64,000 nt of DNA from positions 194,604-258,603 of the forward strand of contig CAZCYO010000002.1 in NCBI GenBank assembly GCA_964503265.1, given 5' to 3'. Positions 7,802 to 64,000 of this stretch are shown here, piece by piece. Position numbers and translations under genes: made by a program. Every line of letters begins with the position of its first letter. Within the stretch, counting starts at the first letter, position 1. The notes beneath the pieces are model-generated. The model was not told the DNA's origin. It did not search any database and was given only the letters and a program-made list of their open reading frames with translations. Origin of the DNA: an uncultured Gammaproteobacteria bacterium (GTDB lineage Bacteria; Patescibacteriota; Microgenomatia; Levybacterales; UBA12049).

Positions 7802-8509
7802 ATGAAAGACACTAAGATAATTGCTTTACCAAACGAGACGCAACCAAGAAATCTTCAGGAGTTAAAAAAGCCTGCTGTTTCAATCCAAGTACTTATTTTT
7901 TCAATCCAACATAATAAACTCACAGTAGCTCTCATTAACCGTCCACGAGAACCATTTCTTAATTTCTGGAGTATTCCGGGAGACATGATCGAGGAACATG
8001 ATCCACTTGAAACTGCTGCACGATCTATTTTATTTCGAAAAACAGGTATTCGAGACGTCTATCTCGAGCAGTTATATACATTTGGAGATATAGATCGAGA
8101 CCCAAGAGGAAGAGTTATCACCATCGCCTATTTCGCGCTTATCCCTCATACAAGTATCGATTTAACGAAAGCGCCACTAACACTTAAAGCAAAATGGGTA
8201 AATGTGAATGCTCTACCAGAATTAGCCTTCGATCACGCAAAAATTATTCAGTATGCAGTAGAACGGATCAAAGCAAAGCTTCTCTATAGTGACATCGCTA
8301 AAGCGCTCCTCCCTGAAAAATTTAGATTATCCGAACTCCAGCAGGTGTATGAAGTCATTCTCGGAAATTCACTTGATAAACGAAATTTCAGAAAGAAAAT
8401 GCTCTCACTGCATATTATCGAACCGACGCTAGAAACATATAAAGAAGGCAGTCATAGACCTGCCAAATTATTTCGATTTTGCACGAAAGAGCTAGTCATT
8501 TTTGATTGA
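7802..8509 (+). CDS. NUDIX-family hydrolase-like protein (NrtR-like architecture with C-terminal extension)
   Basis: 235 aa; degenerate Nudix box around WSIPGDMIEEHDPLETAARSILFRKTGI. C-terminal ~90 aa unassigned. Confidence 0.5.
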   Translation: MKDTKIIALPNETQPRNLQELKKPAVSIQVLIFSIQHNKLTVALINRPREPFLNFWSIPGDMIEEHDPLETAARSILFRKTGIRDVYLEQLYTFGDIDRDPRGRVITIAYFALIPHTSIDLTKAPLTLKAKWVNVNALPELAFDHAKIIQYAVERIKAKLLYSDIAKALLPEKFRLSELQQVYEVILGNSLDKRNFRKKMLSLHIIEPTLETYKEGSHRPAKLFRFCTKELVIFD

Positions 8510-8729
8510 TTTTTTTTGAACAAGAGTTAGTGTATTTAATACATTAACTAAATTACTGATTATTGCTATATATTTTACCTTATAGTAAAATCTCTTAGCA
8601 AAACTTATAGGCTGAATATATGCGTCAGGCGCATCTATTTGTCTAGAAGTACTAGGCAATTGTACTCCAAGTGAGACAGGCGAACGCTCGCCTATCCTCT
8701 CGCAAGGAGTGCTCTTTGACAAGTGAAGA

Positions 8730-9680
8730 GTGTTACATAATAAGAAGGAGGTACTATTGCGTCAATCTGCTAGTGAGCTGCTTCTGGGAGTTATCCTAGG
8801 CGCAGCAGACACATCGCTTGTTCATGTAGGAAACCATGAAGGAACTACGGGCACGTTTGAGATCTTTGGAAATGGCATATATGGTGGGTACACCCCACTC
8901 GCCAGCACCGATGATTTCAACATCTTCGCCACACGTTTCCCGAGTGGACAGATGGGGCTGATGAAAATCAGTAAAACCCCTGAGGCCGTTACTCTCCTCC
9001 TCAAAGAGGAGAAAACGCTCCGCACACTACAAGCGATCTCAGCACAGATCGATGAGGACTCAATTCGGAAAGGAGGCAATGCCTTCTACTACGGATCGAT
9101 GTTTCCCCGAGTGCATGACTCATTCCATGAGACAGACGTCACGGTACTATTCCTGGGTTTCGACCCTAATACAATCGCATCGTATCGACAGTTCGTCCCG
9201 CTCTCCGTTCTAACGCACGAACGCCGAGTAGATATCCAGACCTCGGTCTGGATTCTCGGCAAAGCACTGAAATTGCTCGACTTCCTGCACTCCAACGGTT
9301 ACACCTTGGGATTCATCGATGGCACAAACATGTTCTTGGAGACAAGTCTCCATGGAGTGTTCATGCTCGATTTCTCAAGCGCTGATGCCGTGACTTCGCA
9401 AGAAGCCCAGCGTGCAGAAGTCATCACGCTCGCTCATATCGTTTGGGAAGCTGTCGGAGGAACTGATTCCTCAGATCCTCCCTTTGCTAACCAGCAGATG
9501 ACGAGTACTGACTTTACAGATTTCATAGCCTTCTTCAAGCATCTGACCAATGGGGTCAGTGCTATCGAAGCTCACAAAGCTCTCTACGAGCTGGCTGAGC
9601 GTATTTGGGGAAAGGGGGAAAAGAAAGCCTCAGGCAACTATGGCCGACCATTCCATCCGTACATAAGCTACCCTCGGTAG
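8730..9680 (+). CDS. Divergent protein-kinase-fold protein (atypical or pseudo-kinase), GC-rich island gene
   Basis: Kinase-like order of elements: Gly-rich FGNGIYGG; LMKISK (VAIK-like Lys); …FLHSNGYTLGFIDGTNMFLETSLHGVFMLDFSSA resembles the YLHSxxIIHRDLKPxNILL…DFG catalytic segment with HRD->LGF and DFG->DFS substitutions. Strong RBS aaggaggt at 8743-8750 suggests the true start may be TTG at 8756. Local GC is about 50-55%. Confidence 0.45.
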   Translation: MLHNKKEVLLRQSASELLLGVILGAADTSLVHVGNHEGTTGTFEIFGNGIYGGYTPLASTDDFNIFATRFPSGQMGLMKISKTPEAVTLLLKEEKTLRTLQAISAQIDEDSIRKGGNAFYYGSMFPRVHDSFHETDVTVLFLGFDPNTIASYRQFVPLSVLTHERRVDIQTSVWILGKALKLLDFLHSNGYTLGFIDGTNMFLETSLHGVFMLDFSSADAVTSQEAQRAEVITLAHIVWEAVGGTDSSDPPFANQQMTSTDFTDFIAFFKHLTNGVSAIEAHKALYELAERIWGKGEKKASGNYGRPFHPYISYPR

Positions 9681-9695
9681 CGAAAGAAGGAGAAC

Positions 9696-10892
9696 ATGGG
9701 AGATAAAAGTAAGGTAGCAGGGTATAACTCTGCTGTCTACCACGAAACCGTCGAACGAATCACGAGGCGAGGAGGAGACCTCCACGACGAAGGGCGTCAG
9801 CAGTATTCCCAAACTGGGCGACTGCATCCGTACGTTGACCTCAGCACAGGAGGCCCAAGGCGGTCAATCAATGCGCTGATTCAGCGCGAAGACAGTCTCT
9901 GGGTTCTCTCAAGTGGTGTGAAGCTCCACGTCATCTATTGGACAGATGGCACGGGATCGTTCAGGACCTTCATGCGAGGTGTCTTCCGAAGCATGGAAGA
10001 AATCTTCGGCTATCTCGAAGGACTACGCAGTCAGTATCACATCGATATCGCGTTCGGCGTCATCCAGGATGATGAAGATCCACATCCCCCTGCACAACTC
10101 AGCGAAGCTGAAGGAAACGAAACTATCGTGCAACATATCCCCAAACTCGTCGCAGACGGCGGCGGGGGTGATGATCCCGAAGAATACGATCTGGGCCTGG
10201 CGGCGCTAGCATGGCGAACGCAATCAGACATCAATCTTTTCTACGGCCTGCGCGGACTCTCCGTAATGGTCGGCGATCAGATTGGACGAGGATGGGTATC
10301 CGGACCCGGACAATCCTTCAGGGGAAACACCATTCCAAGCGTCTACAGGCGACTTGGTATCCGTCCAACGGAACTCGAAGGCGTCGGGTCACTTCCCACG
10401 CGTGAACTCATGCAACTGGTGCTGCAGAAGTGGCATTTCTATATGTTGCTCCTGCGGCATGACTACGACCGGTACATCACCAACTGGTGGAAGCAGATCG
10501 TCGGCCCCAGCCGCGTCATCGAAATCTTCGATGGAAGCCTCGTCACACCGACTTGGGCAGGGCTTGCGTACATCACAGAAACGGCTCAACCGAGCCGCGA
10601 TGGGCTCGATCATTTCCTCAATAGCCAGCAGAATAAACTGGTCGACAAGAGGACGGTCAGCCTCGTCTGGGATGCGCTGCAAGCCGCCGAAGAGAACTTC
10701 GGCGCTCAGACTCGTCTCCCGGGATATGCTGAACTTCCCAAGCCTGGCGATTTGTTTATCGATCGTCGTGACCCGTGGCCGATCGGTCACCGTCGCTTCA
10801 GCGAAAACCCTTCCCAGGTAGCCCTCCAGCCGAACGTTCAGCCAGTTGCCGCAAAACGGCGAAGTGGCATCGACTGGAAGAAGTTGAGCTAA
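9696..10892 (+). CDS. Hypothetical protein (GC-rich island), 398 aa
   Basis: RBS aaggag 9 nt upstream; Arg/Gly-rich with acidic patch DGGGGDDPEEYD; no recognisable motif. Stem-loop 10909-10941 follows the stop. Confidence 0.6.
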   Translation: MGDKSKVAGYNSAVYHETVERITRRGGDLHDEGRQQYSQTGRLHPYVDLSTGGPRRSINALIQREDSLWVLSSGVKLHVIYWTDGTGSFRTFMRGVFRSMEEIFGYLEGLRSQYHIDIAFGVIQDDEDPHPPAQLSEAEGNETIVQHIPKLVADGGGGDDPEEYDLGLAALAWRTQSDINLFYGLRGLSVMVGDQIGRGWVSGPGQSFRGNTIPSVYRRLGIRPTELEGVGSLPTRELMQLVLQKWHFYMLLLRHDYDRYITNWWKQIVGPSRVIEIFDGSLVTPTWAGLAYITETAQPSRDGLDHFLNSQQNKLVDKRTVSLVWDALQAAEENFGAQTRLPGYAELPKPGDLFIDRRDPWPIGHRRFSENPSQVALQPNVQPVAAKRRSGIDWKKLS

Positions 10893-10908
10893 TACTCTTC
10901 ACTTCACT

Positions 10909-10941
10909 CCGCGGGGCGGCAGAGAAATTCTCTGTCGTCCC
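10909..10941 (+). terminator. GC-rich stem-loop after GC-island gene B
   Basis: gcggggcggcagagaaattctctgtcgtcccgc (nested palindrome); weak T-tract. Confidence 0.4.
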
Positions 10942-11260
10942 GCTACCTATTCCGATCACATCGGAACTGATGAGTTCTAGAAAATATAACGCATTTTCAC
11001 AGAACGAAAGGTAAATAGACTTATAATATGTCTTAATGATATAATATAGGCTGTTAATTGCACATTAATAATGAGCGAAATAGTAATAGCTGTTCAATGC
11101 GAACAATCCTGTCACTATTTTTCTCTTCATACTATCGATATTTACTAGTATGACTGGTAGCTTCATGTCCCGAAATATTTTCGAGATAGCAAGCTATCAG
11201 TCATGACCTTATGACTGATTTTTCCCGTGGCTGGGAATGGTTCTCTCTCTATGAAAGGAG

Positions 11261-12119
11261 CATGCCTTCTATGGATGATGCATTGAAAGCCCGTCTAGTG
11301 GAACTCGGACTCAACGAGGAACAAGTCGGCAAGATGGCTGAGGCTGGCGCACAATCCGCACCGGATATGGCGCTCACCTCGGCCGAGGACATCGTCGCAA
11401 TTACCGGCATCGGCATTATCGCCGCCCGCCGCATTGCGCACGCATTCGCTCCGACGATCGAACCTACTCCGGCCCCACCCGCTGCCGTCGCTGCTACTCC
11501 GCTGCCAGCGGTCAACGTCACCGTCACGAACAACGACCCCGGCACCATGCGGGTTTCGGAGCTTTTGACAGCTGTTGCCCAAGGCGAGCGCGATCGCGAT
11601 TTCGTCCAAGCGCTCACCAAGAAGGTCGGCGCACGAAGGCGTGTCTATGTCCGCGACGAAAATGGTCGCCTCGACGTCGATGCAACGATGGATCTCATCA
11701 ATGAGGACATCCACATCGGCGAAGAACCGGCATTCTGGGGCAATCAGCCCACAGAAACACTCACTGAAGTGCTTGATGTTCAGCGGTTCAACGACCCGCT
11801 GACCGGCGAACCCATCACCCGCGGCAATCCGTGGTTGAAGCTTCCCATCGACGACATGGCAGCCGTTGCCTATGCGAAGATGAAGAACTTCCTCCGCGGC
11901 ACGGAAGATCCCTATACCATCGTCAACGAGGCCCAGTCGGGTAATTCCGAGCGGTGGACGCGCGTCCAGAATCTCTGGAAGCGCGGTCTGCGTAGCACCG
12001 ATCCCATGACACTCCAAGCTCGGGCGGCCATCTATCGCCGTTCCGGCGAAGGGATCACCACTCCACGCGAGGAGGTGTCGGCTACGGCCGGCCCGCGGTT
12101 TCGCTACGACAAGGAGTAG
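11261..12119 (+). CDS. Hypothetical protein with a helix-hairpin-helix-like motif (GC-rich island)
   Basis: ORF 11211..12119. RBS gaaaggagc precedes ATG at 11261 (MPSMDDALKAR…). …AEDIVAITGIGIIAARRIAHAF… resembles an HhH DNA-binding motif, followed by an Ala/Pro-rich linker. Confidence 0.55.
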
Positions 12120-53704: not shown

Positions 53705-55285
53705 TTAGTGAACAAAAACAACACCGTTCACTACGTTAAAAGGGCCATCAGCCGGCGAAGTCATCGCACTTACTCCAGCCTCTGCTAGAGTTTTCGTGGT
53801 AAAGCTTCCCCAAATCTGATCCGGACTACCATCTTTTACTTTCGCAAAAAGCCACTGGCCAACCCATGATGGATTGCTTGCCTGTGCAACTTTTCCAGCG
53901 AAGTACGCATACTGTCCCGAGACGCTAACACTCGAAATTAAGAGCCGATACCACGAACCATTTGCGTCTTTATACGTAAATGCTCCGTTCTGATCAGCAG
54001 TATTCGCGACGAACTGTGCAGTTCGAGTTAATCCATTAGCCGAGTACGTAGCGTTTCCTAAAATTGAGTGTGAATTCGCTCGCACGTATGCGACACACTG
54101 ACCTTGGTTTGGAAATGTAGGAGAATTAAACGTACTCCATCCTCCATTTTTACACTGATCCACAGTCGTCGGTGGACCGATAACTGGAACTACCGTAATG
54201 TGATACGGATTTTCTACACCGTTAGTCCATGCTGAGGTAACTAACGCTCCGTCTCGTGCACGAACCCTGAGATAGTACTCTCCTGGAGGTGTTCCAGCTG
54301 TTGGAATTTCAGACACTGTTAACCACCCACTCGAATAAATATTCGACGTATATAACGCATCAGAAAATGCTTCGTACTGATATTCATACGGTGGATTTGT
54401 ACTTCCAGATGAGTCTGTCCAATCAACTTTCACCAGTGCACTACTTAAAACACTTACCCCATTTGTGGGAATTGTTATTACTGGAGTTGAGGGAGCGACA
54501 TTTGGTTCGAAATCAAATGTCTTAGTACCAGATGCTGTACCTAGTTTAAACGCATCAATATTTTCTGTATAACCATCAGCATAGGGTTCACCTACACGAA
54601 TCCCCATCCATGAATCTGTTACTCGAACTCGAATTCCTGGAAACGCTGTTAGTAGTGAACTCCATGTTCGGTATTCACTAGTATTATTATCTGGCCATTT
54701 ATTACCATTGCTAGCATATCCTGACCATGTCCATAATCCGTTTCCTCCATTGACCCCGTCCCATTCTTTCCACGTATTTTGTGGAATAGTTCCGACAGTA
54801 TTTGCTGCAGGAACATATACTAATCTCTTTTGCCAACTATCTACTGGGTAATACGCAACATTATTAAAGTCGACATTAAAATTTAAGTATCCTGAACGAT
54901 TCGCACTTGCGGCTGCTCCATTTCCACTCGATGGATTATAGGTACTAAACGTAAGCGTTGTAATATTCGCAAGTGGTGTTCCACTAAATTGGTATGTTGC
55001 AAGATTGCGGCGCTGTGACCCAGTGACACTAATCTGTGCACTCCCAGTTCCAAGCGGTGCGACCACTGGTCCATTCACAAATGAACCAAGCGCATTATCG
55101 ATAACATCAGTTTCATCGTTATAGAAAAACCATTTTTCAGGATGAGCGATAACATCTGAAATATTTGTTGCAAGACTAGGCGCTGTCACGACAGTAGTCG
55201 TATTTACTGCAAAAGCAGGCAAAACTGTTGCAAAAAGAAGTGAAAGTGTGGCAAGAAAAGAAATTGCTAATTTTCTTATATTCAT
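53705..55285 (-). CDS. Large secreted protein of unknown function (526 aa)
   Basis: Signal peptide MNIRKLAISFLATLSLLFATVLPAFA; Thr/Asn/Gly-rich, probably beta-rich. Confidence 0.5.
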   Translation of the reverse strand: MNIRKLAISFLATLSLLFATVLPAFAVNTTTVVTAPSLATNISDVIAHPEKWFFYNDETDVIDNALGSFVNGPVVAPLGTGSAQISVTGSQRRNLATYQFSGTPLANITTLTFSTYNPSSGNGAAASANRSGYLNFNVDFNNVAYYPVDSWQKRLVYVPAANTVGTIPQNTWKEWDGVNGGNGLWTWSGYASNGNKWPDNNTSEYRTWSSLLTAFPGIRVRVTDSWMGIRVGEPYADGYTENIDAFKLGTASGTKTFDFEPNVAPSTPVITIPTNGVSVLSSALVKVDWTDSSGSTNPPYEYQYEAFSDALYTSNIYSSGWLTVSEIPTAGTPPGEYYLRVRARDGALVTSAWTNGVENPYHITVVPVIGPPTTVDQCKNGGWSTFNSPTFPNQGQCVAYVRANSHSILGNATYSANGLTRTAQFVANTADQNGAFTYKDANGSWYRLLISSVSVSGQYAYFAGKVAQASNPSWVGQWLFAKVKDGSPDQIWGSFTTKTLAEAGVSAMTSPADGPFNVVNGVVFVH

Positions 55286-55435: not shown

Positions 55436-55678
55436 TTATACCAATCCGGGGAAAAAATCGGTGACGATATGAGGTGGTTTGACTCCCATTTGTTTGAGCG
55501 TTGACTCATATGAATGTACCATTCCGTGCGGTCCTGAGAGATAAAAAATTCGTTCTTTCCAATCTGGCACCTCTGTTTGAATTAATCCTGAATCTAATCT
55601 TCCAACTCGCCCAGTCCACTGATCGTACTGTCTCTCTGTATCGGTAATCGTGTAGATAGTTTTTATCCCTAATCGCAT
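55436..55678 (-). pseudogene. Remnant of an FNR-like oxidoreductase (C-terminal NAD(P)-binding end only)
   Basis: 80-aa ORF ending …RIFYLSGPHGMVHSYESTLKQMGVKPPHIVTDFFPGLV matches the conserved C-terminus of ferredoxin-NADP-reductase-type NAD-binding domains. No FAD-binding N-terminal part upstream. Confidence 0.4.
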
Positions 55679-55811
55679 TTCTGCTTCATCAAAAATATCT
55701 TTATATACTATGTCCTGTGGATATTTATTCGCAAAGAAATGTACGATATCTCTTTTTTCATCTATGTATGATACTGCACATTTCTAATTCTAGCTTAACT
55801 TTAGTTGTACA

Positions 55812-56697: not shown

Positions 56698-57099
56698 CTA
56701 TTTCACTACCGCCGTACAAAACTTGCATCTCTTAGCCTTAAGAGGGATGAGGCTTAAACATTCAGGACACGTTTTATCTGTAGGATCAACTTTTTCTTTT
56801 CTTTTAATTCGATCTGTCAGTTTATTCATCGGAAGAACGATAAAGAAGTAAATAACCCCAGCGATGATAAGAAATGAAATTAACGCGTTAAGAAAGTCCC
56901 CGACTAAAAATTTACTTTTATTAATCGTAAAATAAATTCCTGAAAAGTTAGGTTCTCCCCCAAATGCTCCGATAAATGGCGTAATCACATCTTTAACCAA
57001 CGCATCTACGATCTTTCCAAATGCCCCACCGATCACGACCGCGACAGCCAAATCAACGACATTCCCACGAAGTATAAAATCTCTAAATCCTTTTAACAT
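56698..57099 (-). CDS. mscL: Large-conductance mechanosensitive channel
   Basis: MLKGFRDFILRGNVVDLAVAVVIGGAFGKIV… canonical MscL N-terminus. Confidence 0.9.
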   Translation of the reverse strand: MLKGFRDFILRGNVVDLAVAVVIGGAFGKIVDALVKDVITPFIGAFGGEPNFSGIYFTINKSKFLVGDFLNALISFLIIAGVIYFFIVLPMNKLTDRIKRKEKVDPTDKTCPECLSLIPLKAKRCKFCTAVVK

Positions 57100-57151: not shown

Positions 57152-58504
57152 TTACAAATCATTCACATATTGTACATATGCTTTTATATCAAACTTTCCT
57201 TTTGCTCCGTTATAACTCATATATCTGATCTTTCCAAATATCTCCCGTTCAAACCATGCCCGGTCATGCACCCCACCCATCGACCATGCAATTCCTGTAT
57301 ATCCGTTTGGATCTCTTCCATCGAGAAAATACTTATCGTTAAGATAGATCGCGTGCTTCATCGCGTCTTCTGGTGTAGCACTCCATTCAAATATTTTTTT
57401 TGCCCAATACATCCGTAAATACCCATGCATTTTCCCTCGTTTTACCATTTCGAGTTGTGCAGCATTCCATAAGTCATCATGAGTCTGACCCTGTTCTAAC
57501 TCAATGAGTGAATAAACATACTCCCTTTTATCTCTTCTATGTTCATCAAGCGTTTTTTGAGCCCATGCAGGAAATCCTTTCGTCGTATCATAGTGAGGAT
57601 TATAGAAACAAAAGTTATCAGATAATTCTTTTCGAACAATGAGTTCTTCCAAAAATGCTTTTTTAGAAGCTGAGTTAGTCGTTGCTCTCTCTACTTCAAG
57701 GGCAATTCGTTGTGATGCGACATGACCGAAGTGAATATATGGCGATAATTCAGATTGTGCATGTTTAGTTGGATCATTTCTTTCTCCATCATATGCATAT
57801 AGTCGATTTTCAATAAATTCACTGAGCGCTTTTTCTGCCGCAATTTCTCCAGGAGTAATCCAATCAACTACTGAGACAGTTATATCTTCTCTAATGTTCT
57901 TTCGAACCTTTTCCCAATCAACAGGTGTTGTTTTTTCAAACCATGGTTTCTCTTGTTTCTTAACAGATGGAAATTCTGTTAAATAGTCTGGTAGTAATCG
58001 CTGAATTTTGGGACGAATAGTATATGCGCCGAATTCTTGTTTTTGAGATGCTATCCATACTGGAACAATATTATGGGTATCTACTTCATAAAAGGGAATC
58101 TCAATTGTTTGACGAATACTCTCCTTCCACGCTCTATTATATCGAAGTGGCGAGAAGTCAGTGACAAGTGCACCAATTTTCTTTTTCGCAACAAACTTTT
58201 CTATTTCTTTTACTGGAGTTCCCTGCAAAAAATAAAATGGAATATTTTTTTCATTCAGAATCTTCTCTACTTCTTGTATTCCATCTAACATGAATTCTAT
58301 TAGCCGAGATGTAGCATGTTCAAATTCTGTTCGTAAACAAAATACGACAGCAAATGGAACATTATGTTCTAAGGCCAATTTCTGTGCAAAAATAAGTGCC
58401 CAGTTATCATTCACGCGTTGATCCCGACTCATCCAGTAAATAATTGGACCTGAAGAATATGATGCATCATTTAGTTGTCGAACACGATCGAGATTGTGAC
58501 TCAT
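57152..58504 (-). CDS. phr: Deoxyribodipyrimidine photolyase, class II CPD photolyase
   Basis: 450 aa; class II signature …PIIYWMSRDQRVNDNWALIFAQ… and C-terminal FAD-binding region …GYTGIAWSMGGVHDRAW…. Confidence 0.85.
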   Translation of the reverse strand: MSHNLDRVRQLNDASYSSGPIIYWMSRDQRVNDNWALIFAQKLALEHNVPFAVVFCLRTEFEHATSRLIEFMLDGIQEVEKILNEKNIPFYFLQGTPVKEIEKFVAKKKIGALVTDFSPLRYNRAWKESIRQTIEIPFYEVDTHNIVPVWIASQKQEFGAYTIRPKIQRLLPDYLTEFPSVKKQEKPWFEKTTPVDWEKVRKNIREDITVSVVDWITPGEIAAEKALSEFIENRLYAYDGERNDPTKHAQSELSPYIHFGHVASQRIALEVERATTNSASKKAFLEELIVRKELSDNFCFYNPHYDTTKGFPAWAQKTLDEHRRDKREYVYSLIELEQGQTHDDLWNAAQLEMVKRGKMHGYLRMYWAKKIFEWSATPEDAMKHAIYLNDKYFLDGRDPNGYTGIAWSMGGVHDRAWFEREIFGKIRYMSYNGAKGKFDIKAYVQYVNDL

Positions 58505-58544: not shown

Positions 58545-58582
58545 CCAAAAGAGAGAGGCCGAACTGTTTTTTCGTTCGGCCT
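58545..58582 (-). terminator. Intrinsic terminator of 58620..59240
   Basis: Minus strand: gaggccgaacgaaaaaacagttcggcctc + tctctttt. Confidence 0.6.
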
Positions 58583-58619
58583 CGCCTCCTCTCACATCTG
58601 TGAGAAACTACTTATGCGA

Positions 58620-59240
58620 CTACGAGCCGCCATTGAAAATCGGCCATTCCCGCACGCGCTGCCACCACGGGCGACGCTGCGGCTTCAACCGCGCAAGCAC
58701 ATACTCACGAAACTCCGAAACCCGCTGTTCAGAGTTATCGTCACCTGAGGTGACATACGCACCTCGTGCGGCGAGAAACTCAATCGCAGCCTTGAGTGCT
58801 GGCCCAGTCTTGGAGAACTCCACGTAGCTCACTTCATCCATGAAGTTGAAGTGAGTTTGCGTGATCAACTCGTCTTGCGTCAGCAGCTGCCTGAATACCC
58901 GCAAACCGGACTCTACAGATAGACCTGATAAGTCTGGCAGGATCACGAAGTTAACACTCCCAGCCTTCCGTTCTGTAGGCGAAGAGAGAGTGATTGCCCG
59001 CTCGATCAGGGTATTTGAGAGCTGGTGTGTTCCATCAGGTGGGATCCGAAGGGTCGTCACGACCATTTGATCGAACTGAACCTCTACAATGAGAGGCATC
59101 TGGGTGACGTTATGAACACCGACGAACGGCGCTCGCCCATCTAGAGTAAGAAACGTGTGATATCCACCACACGCACATAGCTTGGGAGAAAGCCTCGACC
59201 CATTTTCAGGATCGTAGACTTCCAGATCAACGAACTGCAT
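58620..59240 (-). CDS. Hypothetical protein (GC-rich), 206 aa
   Basis: Intact ORF; terminator hairpin 58555-58582 downstream. Confidence 0.45.
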   Translation of the reverse strand: MQFVDLEVYDPENGSRLSPKLCACGGYHTFLTLDGRAPFVGVHNVTQMPLIVEVQFDQMVVTTLRIPPDGTHQLSNTLIERAITLSSPTERKAGSVNFVILPDLSGLSVESGLRVFRQLLTQDELITQTHFNFMDEVSYVEFSKTGPALKAAIEFLAARGAYVTSGDDNSEQRVSEFREYVLARLKPQRRPWWQRVREWPIFNGGS

Positions 59241-59574
59241 CTGTTAGTCCTTTCGGTAACATTCATTGAACGAAAATCATTCGTCACCAGTTACGGCTTG
59301 TGCATTTCCTCTTGCGCATGAAGACGAATGATAAACCACATCATAAACAGAATATCTGCTGTTTATAATACGGCTTACCATAGTCCATGAACAAGGAATA
59401 TAAGTAGTTCATAGGGAGGCGATCTAAAAATAAATAATTTTCAAAAAGTAGCTTTCCATTTTCTGCAAATAGAGAATGGAGTACCGTCTGTTACTAGTTA
59501 TTTATTTCCAGATTACTCCCTACAATTTTTTTTAAGGTGCAATTTTTAGATTATAGGATATTATTCGAGGCTAG

Positions 59575-60696
59575 TCAACGGATAAAATGAAGTATAACAG
59601 TGATAGTTATTATAAATCCAGTCACGAGATTGAAGTACATAAATTTTCTAAATAATCCAGAAATCATAGTGCGATCAAGTAAGGACCAAATTGGAAAAAC
59701 AGTGTATCCACCTATAACTGATCCGATGAGAAAGTAATCCTTTCCCTGAAGTAAAAGTAATACGGCTGATATCGCATAAAAGCAAAAGATAGCAAATGAA
59801 GTTTTCGTTTCACCCAGCACTGTCGCGATGGTTTTCATCCCTGCTTTTTTATCTGGAATTATATCTGGCAATGCACCGAGCATATGTGATGCAATTCCCC
59901 AGAAAAAGAAACTCAAAAATTCTATCCTGATTATCCCCTCTCCTCCTCCCCAGAGAAATCCGATCATAGCTGGTAACACAAAGTGAAGTGATGATGTAAT
60001 TGAATCAAGGCCGGGTTTAATTTTCGTGCGAATCGGAGGAACTGAGTATGCGATTGCTAGAAATATCGCAGAAAGATAACTTAAAAAAAGAACATTACTT
60101 CTTAGAAACCCTGGAAAGAATATCAAAGCACATCCGGTACTTACCCACAGCATTAGTTTATGAAGTTTCTTGGGTAAAATAGCACCTTCTATTGAGGCTT
60201 TACGCGGATTTTTTATATCTGTTTCATAATCATAGATGTCATTTATTCCGTAAACGAGTAAGTTATACGGAAGTAAAAAAAACACAACACAAAGTATATC
60301 TTCTAAAATGAATGTTCCCCGCGCAAGAAATATAGCAAGTCCCGCAGGATATGCAGTATTAACCCACGAAAATGGACGAGAAGAAAACATAACCATTCGC
60401 CAATCTTTCCAGGAAAACTTCATTAATGAAGGAATAGAAAAAACAGTAAGAATAAGAGCAAATCCATAGAAAAAATCTTCAATCGGAATCGTTCCAATCA
60501 TAATCCCACTAATAGCGTGTGCATTATAGACCACTATAGGAAGTCCTGTTAAATATGAATCAAAAAGCACCATACATACCATAAATATGCCAACCACTTC
60601 CCAAAACCCCTTTTTAAACATATATTTTTCTCCAATAAATACATCAAATGAAAGGATAATAAGCAGTGGAATAATCGTGAGTAATATATATGTCAT
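59575..60696 (-). CDS. Fusion protein: lycopene-cyclase-domain (CrtYf/CrtYd-like half) + UbiA-family prenyltransferase (lycopene elongase CrtEb/LyeJ-like)
   Basis: ORF 59575..60756; probable start MTYILL… at 60696, overlapping the upstream stop by ATGA. N-terminal ~100 aa: …FDSYLTGLPIVVYNAHAISGIMIGTIPIEDFFYGF (lycopene-cyclase-domain PxE(E/D) motif). Remainder: UbiA motif YGINDIYDYETD (NDxxDxxxD) and polytopic. Confidence 0.65.
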   Translation of the reverse strand: MTYILLTIIPLLIILSFDVFIGEKYMFKKGFWEVVGIFMVCMVLFDSYLTGLPIVVYNAHAISGIMIGTIPIEDFFYGFALILTVFSIPSLMKFSWKDWRMVMFSSRPFSWVNTAYPAGLAIFLARGTFILEDILCVVFFLLPYNLLVYGINDIYDYETDIKNPRKASIEGAILPKKLHKLMLWVSTGCALIFFPGFLRSNVLFLSYLSAIFLAIAYSVPPIRTKIKPGLDSITSSLHFVLPAMIGFLWGGGEGIIRIEFLSFFFWGIASHMLGALPDIIPDKKAGMKTIATVLGETKTSFAIFCFYAISAVLLLLQGKDYFLIGSVIGGYTVFPIWSLLDRTMISGLFRKFMYFNLVTGFIITITVILHFIR

Positions 60697-60995
60697 ATAA
60701 CCTTTCTCCATCTCCCAAGTAGTAGCGTTATATAACTTACAAGTACTAGAAAACATACCTCTTCAAACGGTATACCCGGCAAAATCCAAATACCGATAAC
60801 ATATGCCGAATTTGTGGCGAAAACTCCAAGCAGTACACCGAGTACATCAATTCCTAAAAACAGCAGTACCGTATATCCTATCGCGCGAACCCATGTCTGA
60901 TACTGTTTTTGAAATAATACTATGCTATATCGTTTATCAAGGATTACAAGTCCGATGAGTGAAAATAATAGAACACTAACATAAAGAATCTGCAT
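60693..60995 (-). CDS. Lycopene-cyclase-domain protein (CrtYe/CrtYc-like half of a heterodimeric carotenoid cyclase)
   Basis: 100 aa; …LGIDVLGVLLGVFATNSAYVIGIWILPGIPFEEVCFLVL… (PxEE motif). Confidence 0.65.
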   Translation of the reverse strand: MQILYVSVLLFSLIGLVILDKRYSIVLFQKQYQTWVRAIGYTVLLFLGIDVLGVLLGVFATNSAYVIGIWILPGIPFEEVCFLVLVSYITLLLGRWRKVI

Positions 60996-61019
60996 AAATT
61001 ATAGATAAGCGTATACTGC

Positions 61020-62051
61020 TTATTTTTCTCTTTTTGTGACAAAAGCTACGAGTTCTAGTAATACATGTTTATCTGCTTCTTCAAGTTTTATATTGTTAAT
61101 ACTCATCGTTGCTTCTTCTTCAAGTTTTTTTTGAATTTGTGCAATTTGTTCAGTAATCGCATAGCGTGAAATGAGTTGTTTTACAAAGAGTATGTGGGAT
61201 TCTGTTATATCCTTCCCCTTAAGATCTAAGAGTGTTTCTCTCTCCTCGTTTGTCACGTGTTGTAATAACAAATACCAGTAGAGCGTTTGCTTTCCTTCTT
61301 TGATATCAGATCCAACTGGTTTACCAATTTTTTGCGCGTCCCCATACAATCCTAGTGAATCATCGGTCAGCTGATATAGTTGTCCGATTGCTTCACCGAA
61401 ATGAGTAACATCTTTCATAAACTGAACATCTTCCCCTCCAAATAAACTTCCAAGTATCATAGGAAGTGAAAACGAATATCTTCCTGTTTTATACATGTAC
61501 AATTCTAGAATTTTTTCTTGCGTTATTTCCTCCGGCCACACATCTTGCATTTGTCCAAAACCTACAGTAATCAGCTCATGTGATAATACTTGAAGCATCA
61601 CATGTTTATGTGAAGTCTCAAGCTGTGACAGCACTTCAAATACCATGAAGAACATAATATCTCCGACACATATTCCCATGGAACTACCCATCTGGGCAGT
61701 GTTTACAAGATGTTTTTCTTTTGCTAGATTTCCATATTGTTGATGAATACTTACCTCTCCTCGTCGTAATCCATCCCCATCAATAATATCATCATGAATG
61801 AGTAGTGCAGAATGAATAAGCTCCATCAAAGATGCCAGCACCAATACTTCACGAGTTACGCTAACACCTTTTATCTGTGCTCCAAAAATTACTAATCCTC
61901 CTCGTAATAATTTACCTTTTTTACTATATGGAAATATTCTCGCAAAAACATCGGCAGCCCAAGGAAGATGATGATATTTTTTTTCAAATTCTATCTGTAA
62001 TTCTGTCAGAATCTGATCAATTTCTTTTCGATGATGAGTAAGAATATCCAT
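61020..62051 (-). CDS. crtE: Polyprenyl (geranylgeranyl) diphosphate synthase
   Basis: First Asp-rich motif LLIHDDIIDGDGLRRG; second YQLTDDSLG; trans-isoprenyl diphosphate synthase fold. Confidence 0.8.
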   Translation of the reverse strand: MDILTHHRKEIDQILTELQIEFEKKYHHLPWAADVFARIFPYSKKGKLLRGGLVIFGAQIKGVSVTREVLVLASLMELIHSALLIHDDIIDGDGLRRGEVSIHQQYGNLAKEKHLVNTAQMGSSMGICVGDIMFFMVFEVLSQLETSHKHVMLQVLSHELITVGFGQMQDVWPEEITQEKILELYMYKTGRYSFSLPMILGSLFGGEDVQFMKDVTHFGEAIGQLYQLTDDSLGLYGDAQKIGKPVGSDIKEGKQTLYWYLLLQHVTNEERETLLDLKGKDITESHILFVKQLISRYAITEQIAQIQKKLEEEATMSINNIKLEEADKHVLLELVAFVTKREK

Positions 62052-62053
62052 AA

Positions 62054-62878
62054 CTAAAACAATATTTTTTTCATAACTGTCATACCTATCTTAACTCGTG
62101 ATGGTTTTACTTTTCGTTCAAAAATAACCTGTGGGTTTTTATCAATTTCTTTAATAACATTCTCGTAAAGTTCAGCACAAACGACAATAGGTAGACGATA
62201 TTTTTTAGGGATTAACCTAAATCCTTTTTTCGATTCTGAAATCATACGTAGTATTCTCTCTGTTTGGAAATGTATAAAATTACCAAATTCTTTTTTCTGA
62301 TTTTTGACGACAGTTGCTGCTACTTCGTTAGGTAATCCAAACTTTTTTAGTTCTTCTTGTGGAAGATACACATATCCATTTTTTTGATCTTCATCTATGT
62401 CTCGAATAATATTCACTAACTGCATAGCACGACCAAGTAACTGAGCACTCGAATATGCTTTTTTAGGAATTTCGAGAACATAACACATCATAATTCCTAT
62501 GACTTCCGCAACACCATAGATAAATTCCTGCAGTTCTGCATAGCTTAAAAAAGTTTTTTTCTTGATTGCAACTTCTTGCCCCAAAAAATACTCTTCGATA
62601 ACTCTTCGTGGAATATGTTTTCTTTTAGCAAGACCTATGAAAGCTGCAATTATGACATGTTCACTTTCTTGTTTTCCATCAAATGCACGAAGTGTTTCAC
62701 GTTTATATTTTTTATATTCTTCAAGTTCTGGTGGAATAGCATCTACGAAATCATCCGCAATTCTCACAAAACTATAGAGAATAAAAACATCATTTCGCAC
62801 AGGTTTTGGAAATAACAGTGATGCAGTATAAAATGTTTTACTCGCTTTTTTTGTTATTTCTGCAAATTGATTATTCAT
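62054..62878 (-). CDS. crtB: Phytoene synthase
   Basis: …YGVAEVIG…, …GRAMQLVNIIRDIDEDQKNGYVYLPQEEL… squalene/phytoene synthase signatures. 8-nt overlap with crtI. Confidence 0.85.
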   Translation of the reverse strand: MNNQFAEITKKASKTFYTASLLFPKPVRNDVFILYSFVRIADDFVDAIPPELEEYKKYKRETLRAFDGKQESEHVIIAAFIGLAKRKHIPRRVIEEYFLGQEVAIKKKTFLSYAELQEFIYGVAEVIGIMMCYVLEIPKKAYSSAQLLGRAMQLVNIIRDIDEDQKNGYVYLPQEELKKFGLPNEVAATVVKNQKKEFGNFIHFQTERILRMISESKKGFRLIPKKYRLPIVVCAELYENVIKEIDKNPQVIFERKVKPSRVKIGMTVMKKILF

Positions 62879-64000
62879 ATGTTTTCCTTATTACTTCTTC
62901 AGTTGCTTTTGCAGATAACATCACTCCAGGAACACCAGCACCCGGATGTGTACTCGCGCCAACTAAAAATAACTGTTCAAATTCTTCACTTTTATTGTGT
63001 GGTCGAAAACTTGCACTTTGGAGAAGCGTTGGTTCCAAACTCCAGCATGCTCCCAGATAATTGTTTCGTTCTTTTTCAAAATCATTTGGAGTAAATACTT
63101 CACACACTTCTATATTTTTCTTTAAGTCTTTCATTCCAAAATCATGTTCTAGATACGTAAGTATTTTTTCTTTATAGTCATGTTTCGTTTCATCCCAATT
63201 GATATTTCTTTTTTTCATATTTGTAACTGGCACAAGAACATACATACTCTCACTTCCGTTTGGTGCCATTGATGGATCAGTTCTGGTTGGGATATGTAAA
63301 TACATTGAAAAATCGTCTGGGAGAATCTTTTTATCAAAAATGTCATGTATGAGTTCTTTATATCGTGGAGAAAGAATGAGCGTATGATGGAGTAACTGTG
63401 GATACTTTTTTTTAACACCCAAATACAATAAAAAACAACTCATCGAATAACGTTTTGATTGTATTTTTTTATTTGTCCATCTATTTCTTTTTTTAGCAGG
63501 AATAAGATCCATATATGTATGTGCTACGTGTGCATTTGAAACTACACCATCTGAGAGGATTTTTTTTCCCTTAACTTTGACCCCTACAACTTTTTTATCC
63601 TGAATAAGAATTTCTTCGACTGGACTATTCGTATATACTTTCCCACCAAGTTCTGTAAATAATTTTTCAAGTGCAGTAACCAAACTATACATTCCGCCTT
63701 TTGAGAAAAATACACCATCTTGTTTTTCTAAGTATGGAATCATCAAATAGACACTTGGTGCTGTAAAGGGATTTCCACCGATAAAAAGTGGATGAAACGA
63801 AAAAGCAAATCGTGCACGAAAATCATGAAAAAAAGTGGAGACTCGCATATAGACTGGGAGAAGTGATTGAAGTTTTATCGCAGTTGGAACAAATGAAAGA
63901 AAATCTTTCAGATAAAACGGTCTTCCTCCGACACCATCTAAAAGGACAAATTTATACAATTGTTTTGTATAGTGAATAAATCTGTCATATCCCGCTCCAT
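62871..64000 (-). CDS. crtI: Phytoene desaturase (C-terminal ~375 aa; N-terminus beyond window edge)
   Basis: C-terminal CrtI signature …FLVGASTHPGAGVPGVMLSAKATEEVI…; reading frame runs open to position 64000. Confidence 0.85.
   Translation of the reverse strand, partial: GAGYDRFIHYTKQLYKFVLLDGVGGRPFYLKDFLSFVPTAIKLQSLLPVYMRVSTFFHDFRARFAFSFHPLFIGGNPFTAPSVYLMIPYLEKQDGVFFSKGGMYSLVTALEKLFTELGGKVYTNSPVEEILIQDKKVVGVKVKGKKILSDGVVSNAHVAHTYMDLIPAKKRNRWTNKKIQSKRYSMSCFLLYLGVKKKYPQLLHHTLILSPRYKELIHDIFDKKILPDDFSMYLHIPTRTDPSMAPNGSESMYVLVPVTNMKKRNINWDETKHDYKEKILTYLEHDFGMKDLKKNIEVCEVFTPNDFEKERNNYLGACWSLEPTLLQSASFRPHNKSEEFEQLFLVGASTHPGAGVPGVMLSAKATEEVIRKTYE

Follow-up and report, generated by a model that had tools for sequence, protein, structure and literature searches.

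A putative cyclic C50 carotenoid operon with a fused cyclase subunit-lycopene elongase gene in a likely member of the Patescibacteria

Gene content and organization of the operon

Carotenoids with 50 carbons (C50) are rare pigments, prized because they act as antioxidants and modulate the fluidity of membranes. The genes considered here lie at one end of a 64,000-nt stretch of contig CAZCYO010000002.1 ("the window", meaning this stretch at its full length). Between positions 59575 and 64000, the minus strand carries five tightly packed open reading frames (ORFs): crtI, crtB, a polyprenyl synthase gene, a gene for one half of a lycopene cyclase (cycA), and a gene that joins a second cyclase half to a lycopene elongase (the fused gene; Table 1). 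A first-pass annotation, made from the sequence, had given this order, and all five ORFs are present, each at its place. The operon quite probably makes a cyclic C50 carotenoid and is organized like lbtA-lbtBC of Dietzia sp. CQ4.

The first gene, crtI, is truncated by the end of the window: there is no upstream in-frame stop, the frame is open to base 64000, and the match to TIGR02734 covers profile positions 144-490 only. The complete gene encodes 494 aa in contig L001, a Logan assembly of SRR12487046 that matches the window without a difference over 7347 nt, and is directly preceded there by a cupredoxin gene (listed at L001 68-657) with no regulator in between. The product of crtB is taken, from its gene context, to be a C40 rather than a C30 enzyme. 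Likewise, the polyprenyl synthase is presumed to be a geranylgeranyl diphosphate (GGPP) synthase, in the role of CrtE; its top NCBIfam models are those of short-chain and GGPP synthases, every score being under its cutoff, and its gene occupies an equal operon position in the related loci L056, L057, and L059.

Two of the four junctions overlap, rather than the "several" that had been noted at first. crtI and crtB share 8 nt (62871-62878), with the crtB start lying over the crtI stop, and cycA and the fused gene share the 4 nt of an ATGA stop/start, an arrangement that recurs in L057 and L059. The other two junctions are gaps of 2 nt (crtB to the synthase gene) and 24 nt (synthase gene to cycA). 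A scan of 58.4-64 kb gives no excess of promoters or terminators over shuffled sequences and no terminator directly after the fused gene. Within the 334 nt that separate this gene from a downstream ORFan lies a long imperfect inverted repeat (59331-59378, minus strand; 20 pairs counting G-T, 8-nt loop), which may mean nothing, since terminator-like sites there are not above the shuffled expectation.

No regulator gene is seen adjoining the operon in the window. In three related loci, a TetR or MarR gene lies directly upstream of crtI (L056, 643-1209; L057, 5928-6371; L059, 5819-6388); these genes recall CrtR, the GGPP-sensing MarR regulator of Corynebacterium glutamicum.

Table 1. Positions of the operon genes, their domains and motifs, and two neighboring genes in the window.
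Feature	Position	Strand	Evidence
crtI (phytoene desaturase family), 3' 376 codons	62871..64000	-	TIGR02734 383 bits, cutoff 238
crtB (phytoene synthase, SQS_PSY family)	62054..62878	-	PF00494 177.5 bits
trans-polyprenyl diphosphate synthase gene	61020..62051	-	PF00348 167 bits
cycA, separately encoded cyclase half (CrtYe/CrtYg/LbtA type), 100 aa	60693..60995	-	TIGR03462 40.7 bits, cutoff 39.4
Coupling site of cycA and the fused gene: GGAGA (60705-60709) and ATGA stop/start (60693-60696)	60693..60709	-	read from the sequence
Fused gene, CrtYf/LbtB-type cyclase half and CrtEb-type lycopene elongase, 373 aa	59575..60696	-	PF18916 and PF01040
N-terminal cyclase domain of the fused gene product, aa 1-95, with three membrane helices predicted	60412..60696	-	TIGR03462 49.4 bits
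UbiA-fold elongase domain, aa 100-373 plus stop	59575..60399	-	39% identity to C. glutamicum CrtEb
First Asp-rich motif NDIYDYETD, N152-D160	60217..60243	-	N152, D153, D156, D160 invariant in 63 homologues
Second Asp-rich motif DIIPD, D278-D282	59851..59865	-	D278, D282 invariant in 63 homologues
DNA photolyase gene, downstream of the operon	57152..58504	-	PF00875 107 bits; syntenic in L056
MscL mechanosensitive channel gene	56698..57099	-	PF01741 124 bits; syntenic in L056

The fused gene and its partner

The mechanical ORF of the fused gene spans 59575-60756 and matches first the Lycopene_cyc family (PF18916, 48 bits) and then the UbiA family (PF01040, 90.5 bits), so that, as first proposed, a cyclase half and a UbiA domain reside in one gene. 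The upstream ATG at 60756, which would give a protein of 393 aa, has been dropped as the start in favor of the ATG at 60696. The latter is almost certainly the true start of a 373-aa protein, because it forms the ATGA overlap, is preceded by GGAGA 9-13 nt upstream, and lies where the domain models and homologues begin, and because the identical database protein (P0001, present in NCBI, ENA, and Logan) is also 373 aa long.

Both cyclase halves of the operon are of the heterodimeric type, one of each subunit type, and they are encoded side by side. Reference proteins for the comparison were taken from the supplementary ORF table of PMC6393565. By BLASTP, CycA is 31-35% identical to CrtYe (E 3e-11 to 8e-11) and also matches LbtA and CrtYg, with no match to Yf-type subunits (the best, to CrtYf, has E 0.5). 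A Pfam search with CycA gives no match; with the TIGR03462 cutoff passed, the 100-aa ORF can nevertheless be retained as the lycopene cyclase half that it was first taken for. The cyclase domain of the fused protein is of the other type. A Yf-type hidden Markov model (HMM) matches aa 1-95 and there is no reportable Ye-type HMM match (E <= 0.01); by BLASTP, the domain is 31% identical to the N-terminal LbtB part of LbtBC (E 9e-6) and also matches CrtYf and CrtYh. Each half was aligned with five reference subunits and examined for an Asp in helix 2 and a PxE[E/D] motif before helix 3. CycA retains the D of the WD.xG motif (as IDVLG) and the PFEE motif, and the fused domain keeps the acidic motifs FDSYL and PIED (aa 69-72).

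How the two domains of the fused protein are joined is suggested by an AlphaFold2 model built from a 63-sequence alignment (predicted local distance difference test, pLDDT, 91.2; predicted template modeling score, pTM, 0.81). The cyclase domain is modeled as three helices (aa 3-20, 29-51, and 72-105), the last of which runs unbroken through the junction: it starts as the third membrane helix of the cyclase half and continues into the beginning of the UbiA part. A direct join of this kind requires that the three-helix cyclase half have a cytoplasmic C-terminus, as it presumably does; the pattern of Lys and Arg in the loops is compatible with a cytoplasmic junction.

In unfused relatives the two genes lie very close together. 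At the Saccharimonadales locus L003, for example, the stop of the Yf-type gene is 4 nt from the elongase ATG, in another frame. A small error in assembly or sequencing, such as one that removes a stop or shifts the frame between neighboring crtYf and crtEb genes, could therefore create a fused ORF. However, the same ORF is present in the Logan assembly and in an ENA assembly from another sample (ERZ4216102, L002), which differs from the window at 2 of 2722 nt, once in the synthase gene and once in the downstream ORFan, but not in the fused gene. In addition, the same operon and fusion are found in four diverged relatives (L056, L057, L058, and L059), whose proteins (P0002, P0004/P0005, and P0006) are 46-58% identical to that of the window. 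In each, a cycA gene (98/100 aa) precedes the fused gene, although in L056 it was not called by the source annotation. About 30 other proteins share the continuous architecture as well, and the junction itself, one high-confidence helix in the model, contains no long homopolymer. Thus an artefact is extremely improbable, and the frameshift that was to be checked for is excluded as far as the assemblies show.

Identity of the elongase domain

By BLASTP, the UbiA part of the fused protein is 39% identical to CrtEb of C. glutamicum over 280 aa (full length, E 4e-60), 39.5% identical to CrtE2, and 37.5% identical to the LbtC part of LbtBC. Besides the two Asp-rich motifs, 47 further positions are invariant among 63 homologues. 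The protein scores 243.5 bits against NCBIfam model NF009608 (PRK13105; cutoff 217), for which the characterized enzymes CrtEb, CrtE2, and LbtBC give 489.5, 449.2, and 417.9 bits, respectively. A second model, NF009516 (PRK12875), which we take to represent the LyeJ family, is not passed (141.9 bits, cutoff 205); two cyclase-less homologues of Patescibacteria that were scanned, L016 (245 bits) and L020 (221 bits), do pass it.

Since the fold and the Asp-rich motifs are common to the whole UbiA family, the domain might instead be another membrane prenyltransferase, of menaquinone, ubiquinone, haem O, chlorophyll, or archaeal-lipid synthesis, that lies beside carotenoid genes by chance. Its structural matches are generic UbiA homologues and digeranylgeranylglyceryl phosphate (DGGGP) synthase, the top Foldseek match in the PDB being an Archaeoglobus fulgidus UbiA homologue with dimethylallyl diphosphate (DMAPP) and Mg (4TQ4; target TM-score 0.73, E 1e-6). 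Yet the models for such enzymes are far from satisfied: MenA gives 15.9 bits (cutoff 102), UbiA 26.3 (275), ChlG 26.1 (313), and BchG 21.4 (212), and the MenA, UbiA, ChlG, and DGGGP synthase models overall give 16-36 bits against cutoffs of 102-313. Together with the full-length identity to CrtEb, the covalent joining of the domain to a carotenoid cyclase half, and its place in a clade with CrtEb, CrtE2, and LbtBC (97% bootstrap), these scores make a chance neighbor very improbable. Because NF009608 is passed while the MenA, UbiA, and ChlG models fail, the assignment of the domain, by sequence, as a lycopene elongase of the CrtEb/CrtE2/LbtBC kind is well supported. Its initial grouping with elongases, and not with menaquinone or other prenyltransferases, has thus held.

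Phylogeny of the elongases and origin of the fusion

In a neighbor-joining tree of 150 elongase domains (100 bootstraps), the clade of cyclase-linked elongases that includes the window protein, CrtEb, CrtE2, and LbtBC excludes both the cyclase-less enzymes of Patescibacteria and the archaeal enzymes. All nine cyclase-less homologues that were placed form a clade of their own (bootstrap 100). Within the cyclase-linked clade, the window protein belongs to a group of five proteins, all of them fused (bootstrap 94), which is sister to the other 129 cyclase-linked sequences (bootstrap 86). These 129 hold unfused lineages of Patescibacteria and, nested within those, an actinobacterial group (bootstrap 68) to which LbtBC and the remaining fused clades (bootstrap 100 and 96) belong. 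Deep nodes inside the 129-sequence group are weakly supported in this neighbor-joining analysis.

The fused clades are thus separate and split by unfused lineages, and the window protein and LbtBC differ by about 45 residues in their linkers. Because of these differences, an independent fusion is the more economical explanation, and the window clade, judged from its sequences, probably fused independently of LbtBC. This is not proven, repeated fission being the alternative. It is tempting to go further, to an ancient independent fusion in Patescibacteria other than Saccharibacteria, with an ultra-small, presumably host-dependent bacterium having its own complete cyclic C50 route, maybe with an undescribed ring type, and a compact, linker-less design for channeling. 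This extended proposal is a tentative one, somewhat less likely to be right than wrong.

The elongase family fuses readily, as several other kinds of fusion are found in a survey of the family at 50% clustering. Triple fusions of Ye-type half, Yf-type half, and elongase (P0262, P0294, and P0297) are about 515 aa long. Other elongases are joined to a CrtI-like desaturase or to a phytoene synthase (P0328, 852 aa; P0349, 558 aa). Elongases of 534-719 aa (P0249, P0251, and P0256) carry a C-terminal family-2 glycosyltransferase domain, which suggests, from sequence, an elongase-CrtX-like fusion and hence glycosylated C50 carotenoids. In addition, loci L006-L011 from metagenome-assembled genomes (MAGs) of Saccharibacteria and other Patescibacteria contain an elongase ORF of about 680 aa (at about 8130-10180 in each).

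Host and composition of the window

The window contains no ribosomal RNA or transfer RNA gene. The named matches of MetK, encoded on the same 341-kb contig, are from Candidatus Levyibacteriota (75%), the Patescibacteria group (71% and 67%), and an Acidobacteria-labeled entry (68%). Among the GTDB representatives scanned, the loci encoding elongase relatives are mostly from MAGs of Saccharibacteria and other Patescibacteria, the best being 42% identical. The host is likely, but not established, to be a member of the Patescibacteria, and is probably ultra-small.

The GC content of the window is 42.5%. The operon, at 34.6%, stands apart from the rest (43.1%) and from the next-lowest 4.4-kb stretch (38.6%), and the GC content at third codon positions (GC3) of its genes is 0.19-0.29. 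The description of the host as a "low-GC small-genome bacterium" therefore holds only in part: low GC is a property of the operon and not of the window, and the best named MetK matches point to Patescibacteria, though not conclusively. The low GC of the operon may reflect either foreign origin or the composition of membrane proteins.

As a compositional outlier whose fused architecture is commonest in Microbacteriaceae, the operon could be a recent horizontal gain from Actinobacteria or part of a mis-binned actinobacterial contig, in which case the fusion would be actinobacterial too. However, the operon deviates to lower GC, the opposite of actinobacterial DNA, and in the tree the window clade branches beside the whole of the remaining cyclase-linked elongases, as their sister, instead of being nested in the actinobacterial fused clades. 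Given the direction of the GC deviation and the tree, a recent actinobacterial donor is unlikely. Furthermore, the junction in the window protein does not have the LbtBC linker of about 45 aa, and both the operon and its flanking genes are syntenic in L056. Relative to that locus, the operon products CycA, the fused protein, the polyprenyl synthase, and CrtB are less conserved (41-59% identity) than those of the flanking MscL (82%) and photolyase (72%) genes. Overall, an actinobacterial origin of either sort is improbable.

Proposed pathway

The catalytic steps, substrate chain lengths, ring type, and physiological role proposed here are inferred by analogy with known systems. Synthesis would begin with the formation of GGPP by the polyprenyl synthase. 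CrtB would then join two GGPP molecules to give phytoene, which CrtI would desaturate to lycopene. The UbiA-fold domain, with its Mg2+ held by the two Asp-rich motifs, is predicted to extend lycopene at both ends by a C5 unit taken from DMAPP, resulting in an acyclic C50 intermediate. The N-terminal, CrtYf-type half of the fused protein would pair in the membrane with the separate, CrtYe-type CycA, creating a heterodimeric cyclase that closes the end rings. Translation of cycA and the fused gene is probably coupled through the ATGA overlap. Through the fusion, the cyclase subunit and the elongase would be made in a 1:1 ratio and the elongase would stay beside the cyclase, sparing the very hydrophobic intermediate from having to diffuse. 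Photoprotection or membrane stabilization would be the most likely function of the pigment.

With the elongase model passed and both cyclase subunit types present, the cyclic C45/C50-type pathway of the first-pass annotation is upheld. The halves are assigned a role in C50 cyclization because they are fused or linked to an elongase. As to the type of ring, the reference pairs for beta, gamma, and epsilon rings are each about 30% identical to the window halves, and thus give no basis for a prediction.

Several points weigh against a cyclic C50 product. For this organism, the pathway is known from genes and predicted structure alone. The elongase score is just 26 bits over the NF009608 cutoff, about half of what the characterized enzymes reach, and CycA is barely above the TIGR03462 cutoff and is missed by Pfam. 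The polyprenyl synthase fails every NCBIfam equivalog cutoff, and its product chain length is putative. The cyclase halves were compared with C50 references and not with the C40 subunits CrtYc and CrtYd, so that a role as a C40 cyclase is possible. Finally, the supply of isopentenyl diphosphate and DMAPP cannot be judged from the window alone.

Heterodimeric cyclase halves of the same superfamily form C40 rings in other bacteria. The end product could be a C40 ring compound (such as beta-carotene) or an acyclic, bacterioruberin-like C50 carotenoid, rather than a cyclic C50 one; in that case, the halves would act on lycopene or be inactive on the elongated product. LbtBC by itself converts lycopene to the linear C50 carotenoid bisanhydrobacterioruberin (PMC5678898), and the bacterioruberin genes lyeJ, crtD, and cruF have been reported in Patescibacteria (PMC9948471). 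Moreover, in many loci of Patescibacteria (L015-L031), crtI and crtB are accompanied by a UbiA gene but not by cyclase halves. However, the cyclase-less enzymes of Patescibacteria occupy their own clade, and the two that were scanned pass the NF009516 model that the window protein fails. Throughout the window clade, the two cyclase halves are conserved together with their acidic motifs, and the fusion of a cyclase half to an elongase is a feature of a characterized cyclic C50 system. In addition, no crtD- or cruF-like gene is found in 56.7-64 kb in the ORF list or by Pfam. An acyclic or C40 product is accordingly unlikely, if less so than the other alternatives considered above, and a cyclic C50 product is preferred.

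Loci L015-L031 (MAGs of Saccharibacteria and Paceibacteria), in most of which the UbiA gene lies at about 8000-8850 beside crtI, crtB, and a synthase gene, probably represent the bacterioruberin-type system reported for Patescibacteria of Lake Baikal. In other loci (L032, L034, L036, L039, L042, L044, and L050; MAGs of Peribacteria, Absconditabacterales, and others), matches to crtI, crtB, and UbiA are broken into short ORFs when read with genetic code 11, which suggests stop-codon reassignment (for example, UGA as sense) or pseudogenes.

Neighboring genes

The photolyase gene downstream of the operon fits a light-protection role for the pigment; photolyase genes are also found near carotenoid genes in the Saccharibacteria loci L017, L020, and L028. 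Further downstream, Pfam gives nothing related to isoprenoids, carotenoids, or rhodopsin among the neighbors at 42-56 kb, where many ORFs belong to no Pfam family.

Between the operon and the photolyase gene lies a GC-rich island (58560-59250) with sharp borders (51-62% GC versus 28-40% on either side). It contains a minus-strand ORF of 206 aa (58620-59240; GC3 0.59), the downstream ORFan mentioned above, which has no Pfam or NCBIfam match and finds only itself among 5.8 billion protein clusters; nor does the island have a credible Rfam match. The ORF stop is followed by a GC hairpin and a T-run (at about 58545-58583). The single difference of the second assembly in this ORF is synonymous (V96V). 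The ORF is absent from the syntenic L056, where an unrelated 148-aa gene is found.

A second GC-rich stretch, at 10001-12000 (54% GC), coincides with ORFs at 9696-10892 (no Pfam family) and 11211-12119. In its composition, this genome segment is a mosaic.

At 55436-55783, the minus strand encodes an 80-aa ORF (115 codons from stop to stop). It is 68% identical to a 510-aa NAD/FAD-binding oxidoreductase of L056, but only to the 107 residues at the C-terminus of that protein. The ApbE gene of L056 and its neighboring 154-aa gene are missing from the window; instead, there is a gene for a secreted-looking protein of 526 aa with no Pfam family (53705-55285). This region looks as if a deletion or a replacement had taken place, with part of a gene left behind.

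Significance

To our knowledge, the elongase/cyclase sets characterized so far are few, and all of them come from Actinobacteria or haloarchaea. A divergent set from another phylum (about 39% identical to CrtEb and 31-35% to the cyclase subunits) would offer more sequence space for pathway engineering, and the linker-less fusion may provide a natural template for stoichiometric elongase-cyclase enzymes. The operon, beside its photolyase gene, is also a further piece in the scattered evidence for C50 pigment synthesis by some Patescibacteria themselves, and would imply exposure to light. The understanding of how C50 pathways work is unchanged. What is modestly new is the well-supported, all-fused sister clade and its probable host among the Patescibacteria; the kind of fusion itself was already known.

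Comparison with known systems

A search of the accessible literature for cyclic C50 pathways or fused elongases in Patescibacteria yields reports of bacterioruberin-type genes only (PMC9948471 notes the pathway in this group). The bacterioruberin pathway (LyeJ/CrtD/CruF), which has been reported from haloarchaea, Arthrobacter, and some Patescibacteria, resembles the window operon in the addition of C5 units by a UbiA-family enzyme and in the clustering of the genes with crtI and crtB. Unlike that pathway, the window operon includes cyclase halves and no crtD or cruF, and its elongase fails NF009516 and falls outside the cyclase-less clade.

The same enzyme families and pathway logic are found in C. 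glutamicum (CrtYe/CrtYf/CrtEb, for decaprenoxanthin) and Micrococcus luteus (CrtE2/CrtYg/CrtYh, for sarcinaxanthin). In these bacteria, the genes for the elongase and the heterodimeric cyclase lie within <1.7 kb, with overlapping reading frames (PMC6393565), and a MarR-type regulator, CrtR, is described for the clusters (PMC5401885). However, they encode three separate polypeptides, the M. luteus elongase gene comes first, and the clusters are high-GC or actinobacterial.

The closest parallel is Dietzia sp. CQ4, in which the elongase gene is fused in frame with that of a cyclase subunit (lbtBC) and lbtA lies upstream with a 4-nt overlap (PMC6393565, PMC6669644). LbtA and the LbtB part of LbtBC constitute a functional C50 beta-cyclase (PMC6393565), and the pathway to the beta-cyclic C50 carotenoid C.p.450 was characterized by Tao et al. 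2007 (cited through PMC6393565 and PMC6669644). Furthermore, 34 of the 120 best database matches of the window protein carry a Yf-type domain before the elongase (Mycetocola, Lysinibacter, Klugiella, and Leucobacter among them). Thus neither the statement that CrtYf and CrtEb are always encoded by separate genes nor the idea that their fusion is unusual or unprecedented can be kept: the architecture has been characterized in Dietzia and is common in databases.

As in Dietzia, a CrtYe-type gene in the window is followed, after a 4-nt overlap, by a gene in which a Yf half is fused to the N-terminus of the elongase. The two fused proteins match the same NCBIfam models; their elongase parts are 37.5% identical and their cyclase parts 31%. 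LbtBC, however, is 432 aa when translated (consistent with the domain limits in PMC6669644), with a Pro/Gly/Asp-rich linker about 45 residues longer, whereas the window protein has 373 aa and a helical junction of <10 residues. Dietzia is an actinobacterium, while the host of the window operon, with its gene order crtI-crtB-synthase-cyclase-elongase, is probably a member of the Patescibacteria. The window gene can thus be described as a divergent, probably independently fused relative of LbtA/LbtBC in an unusual host.

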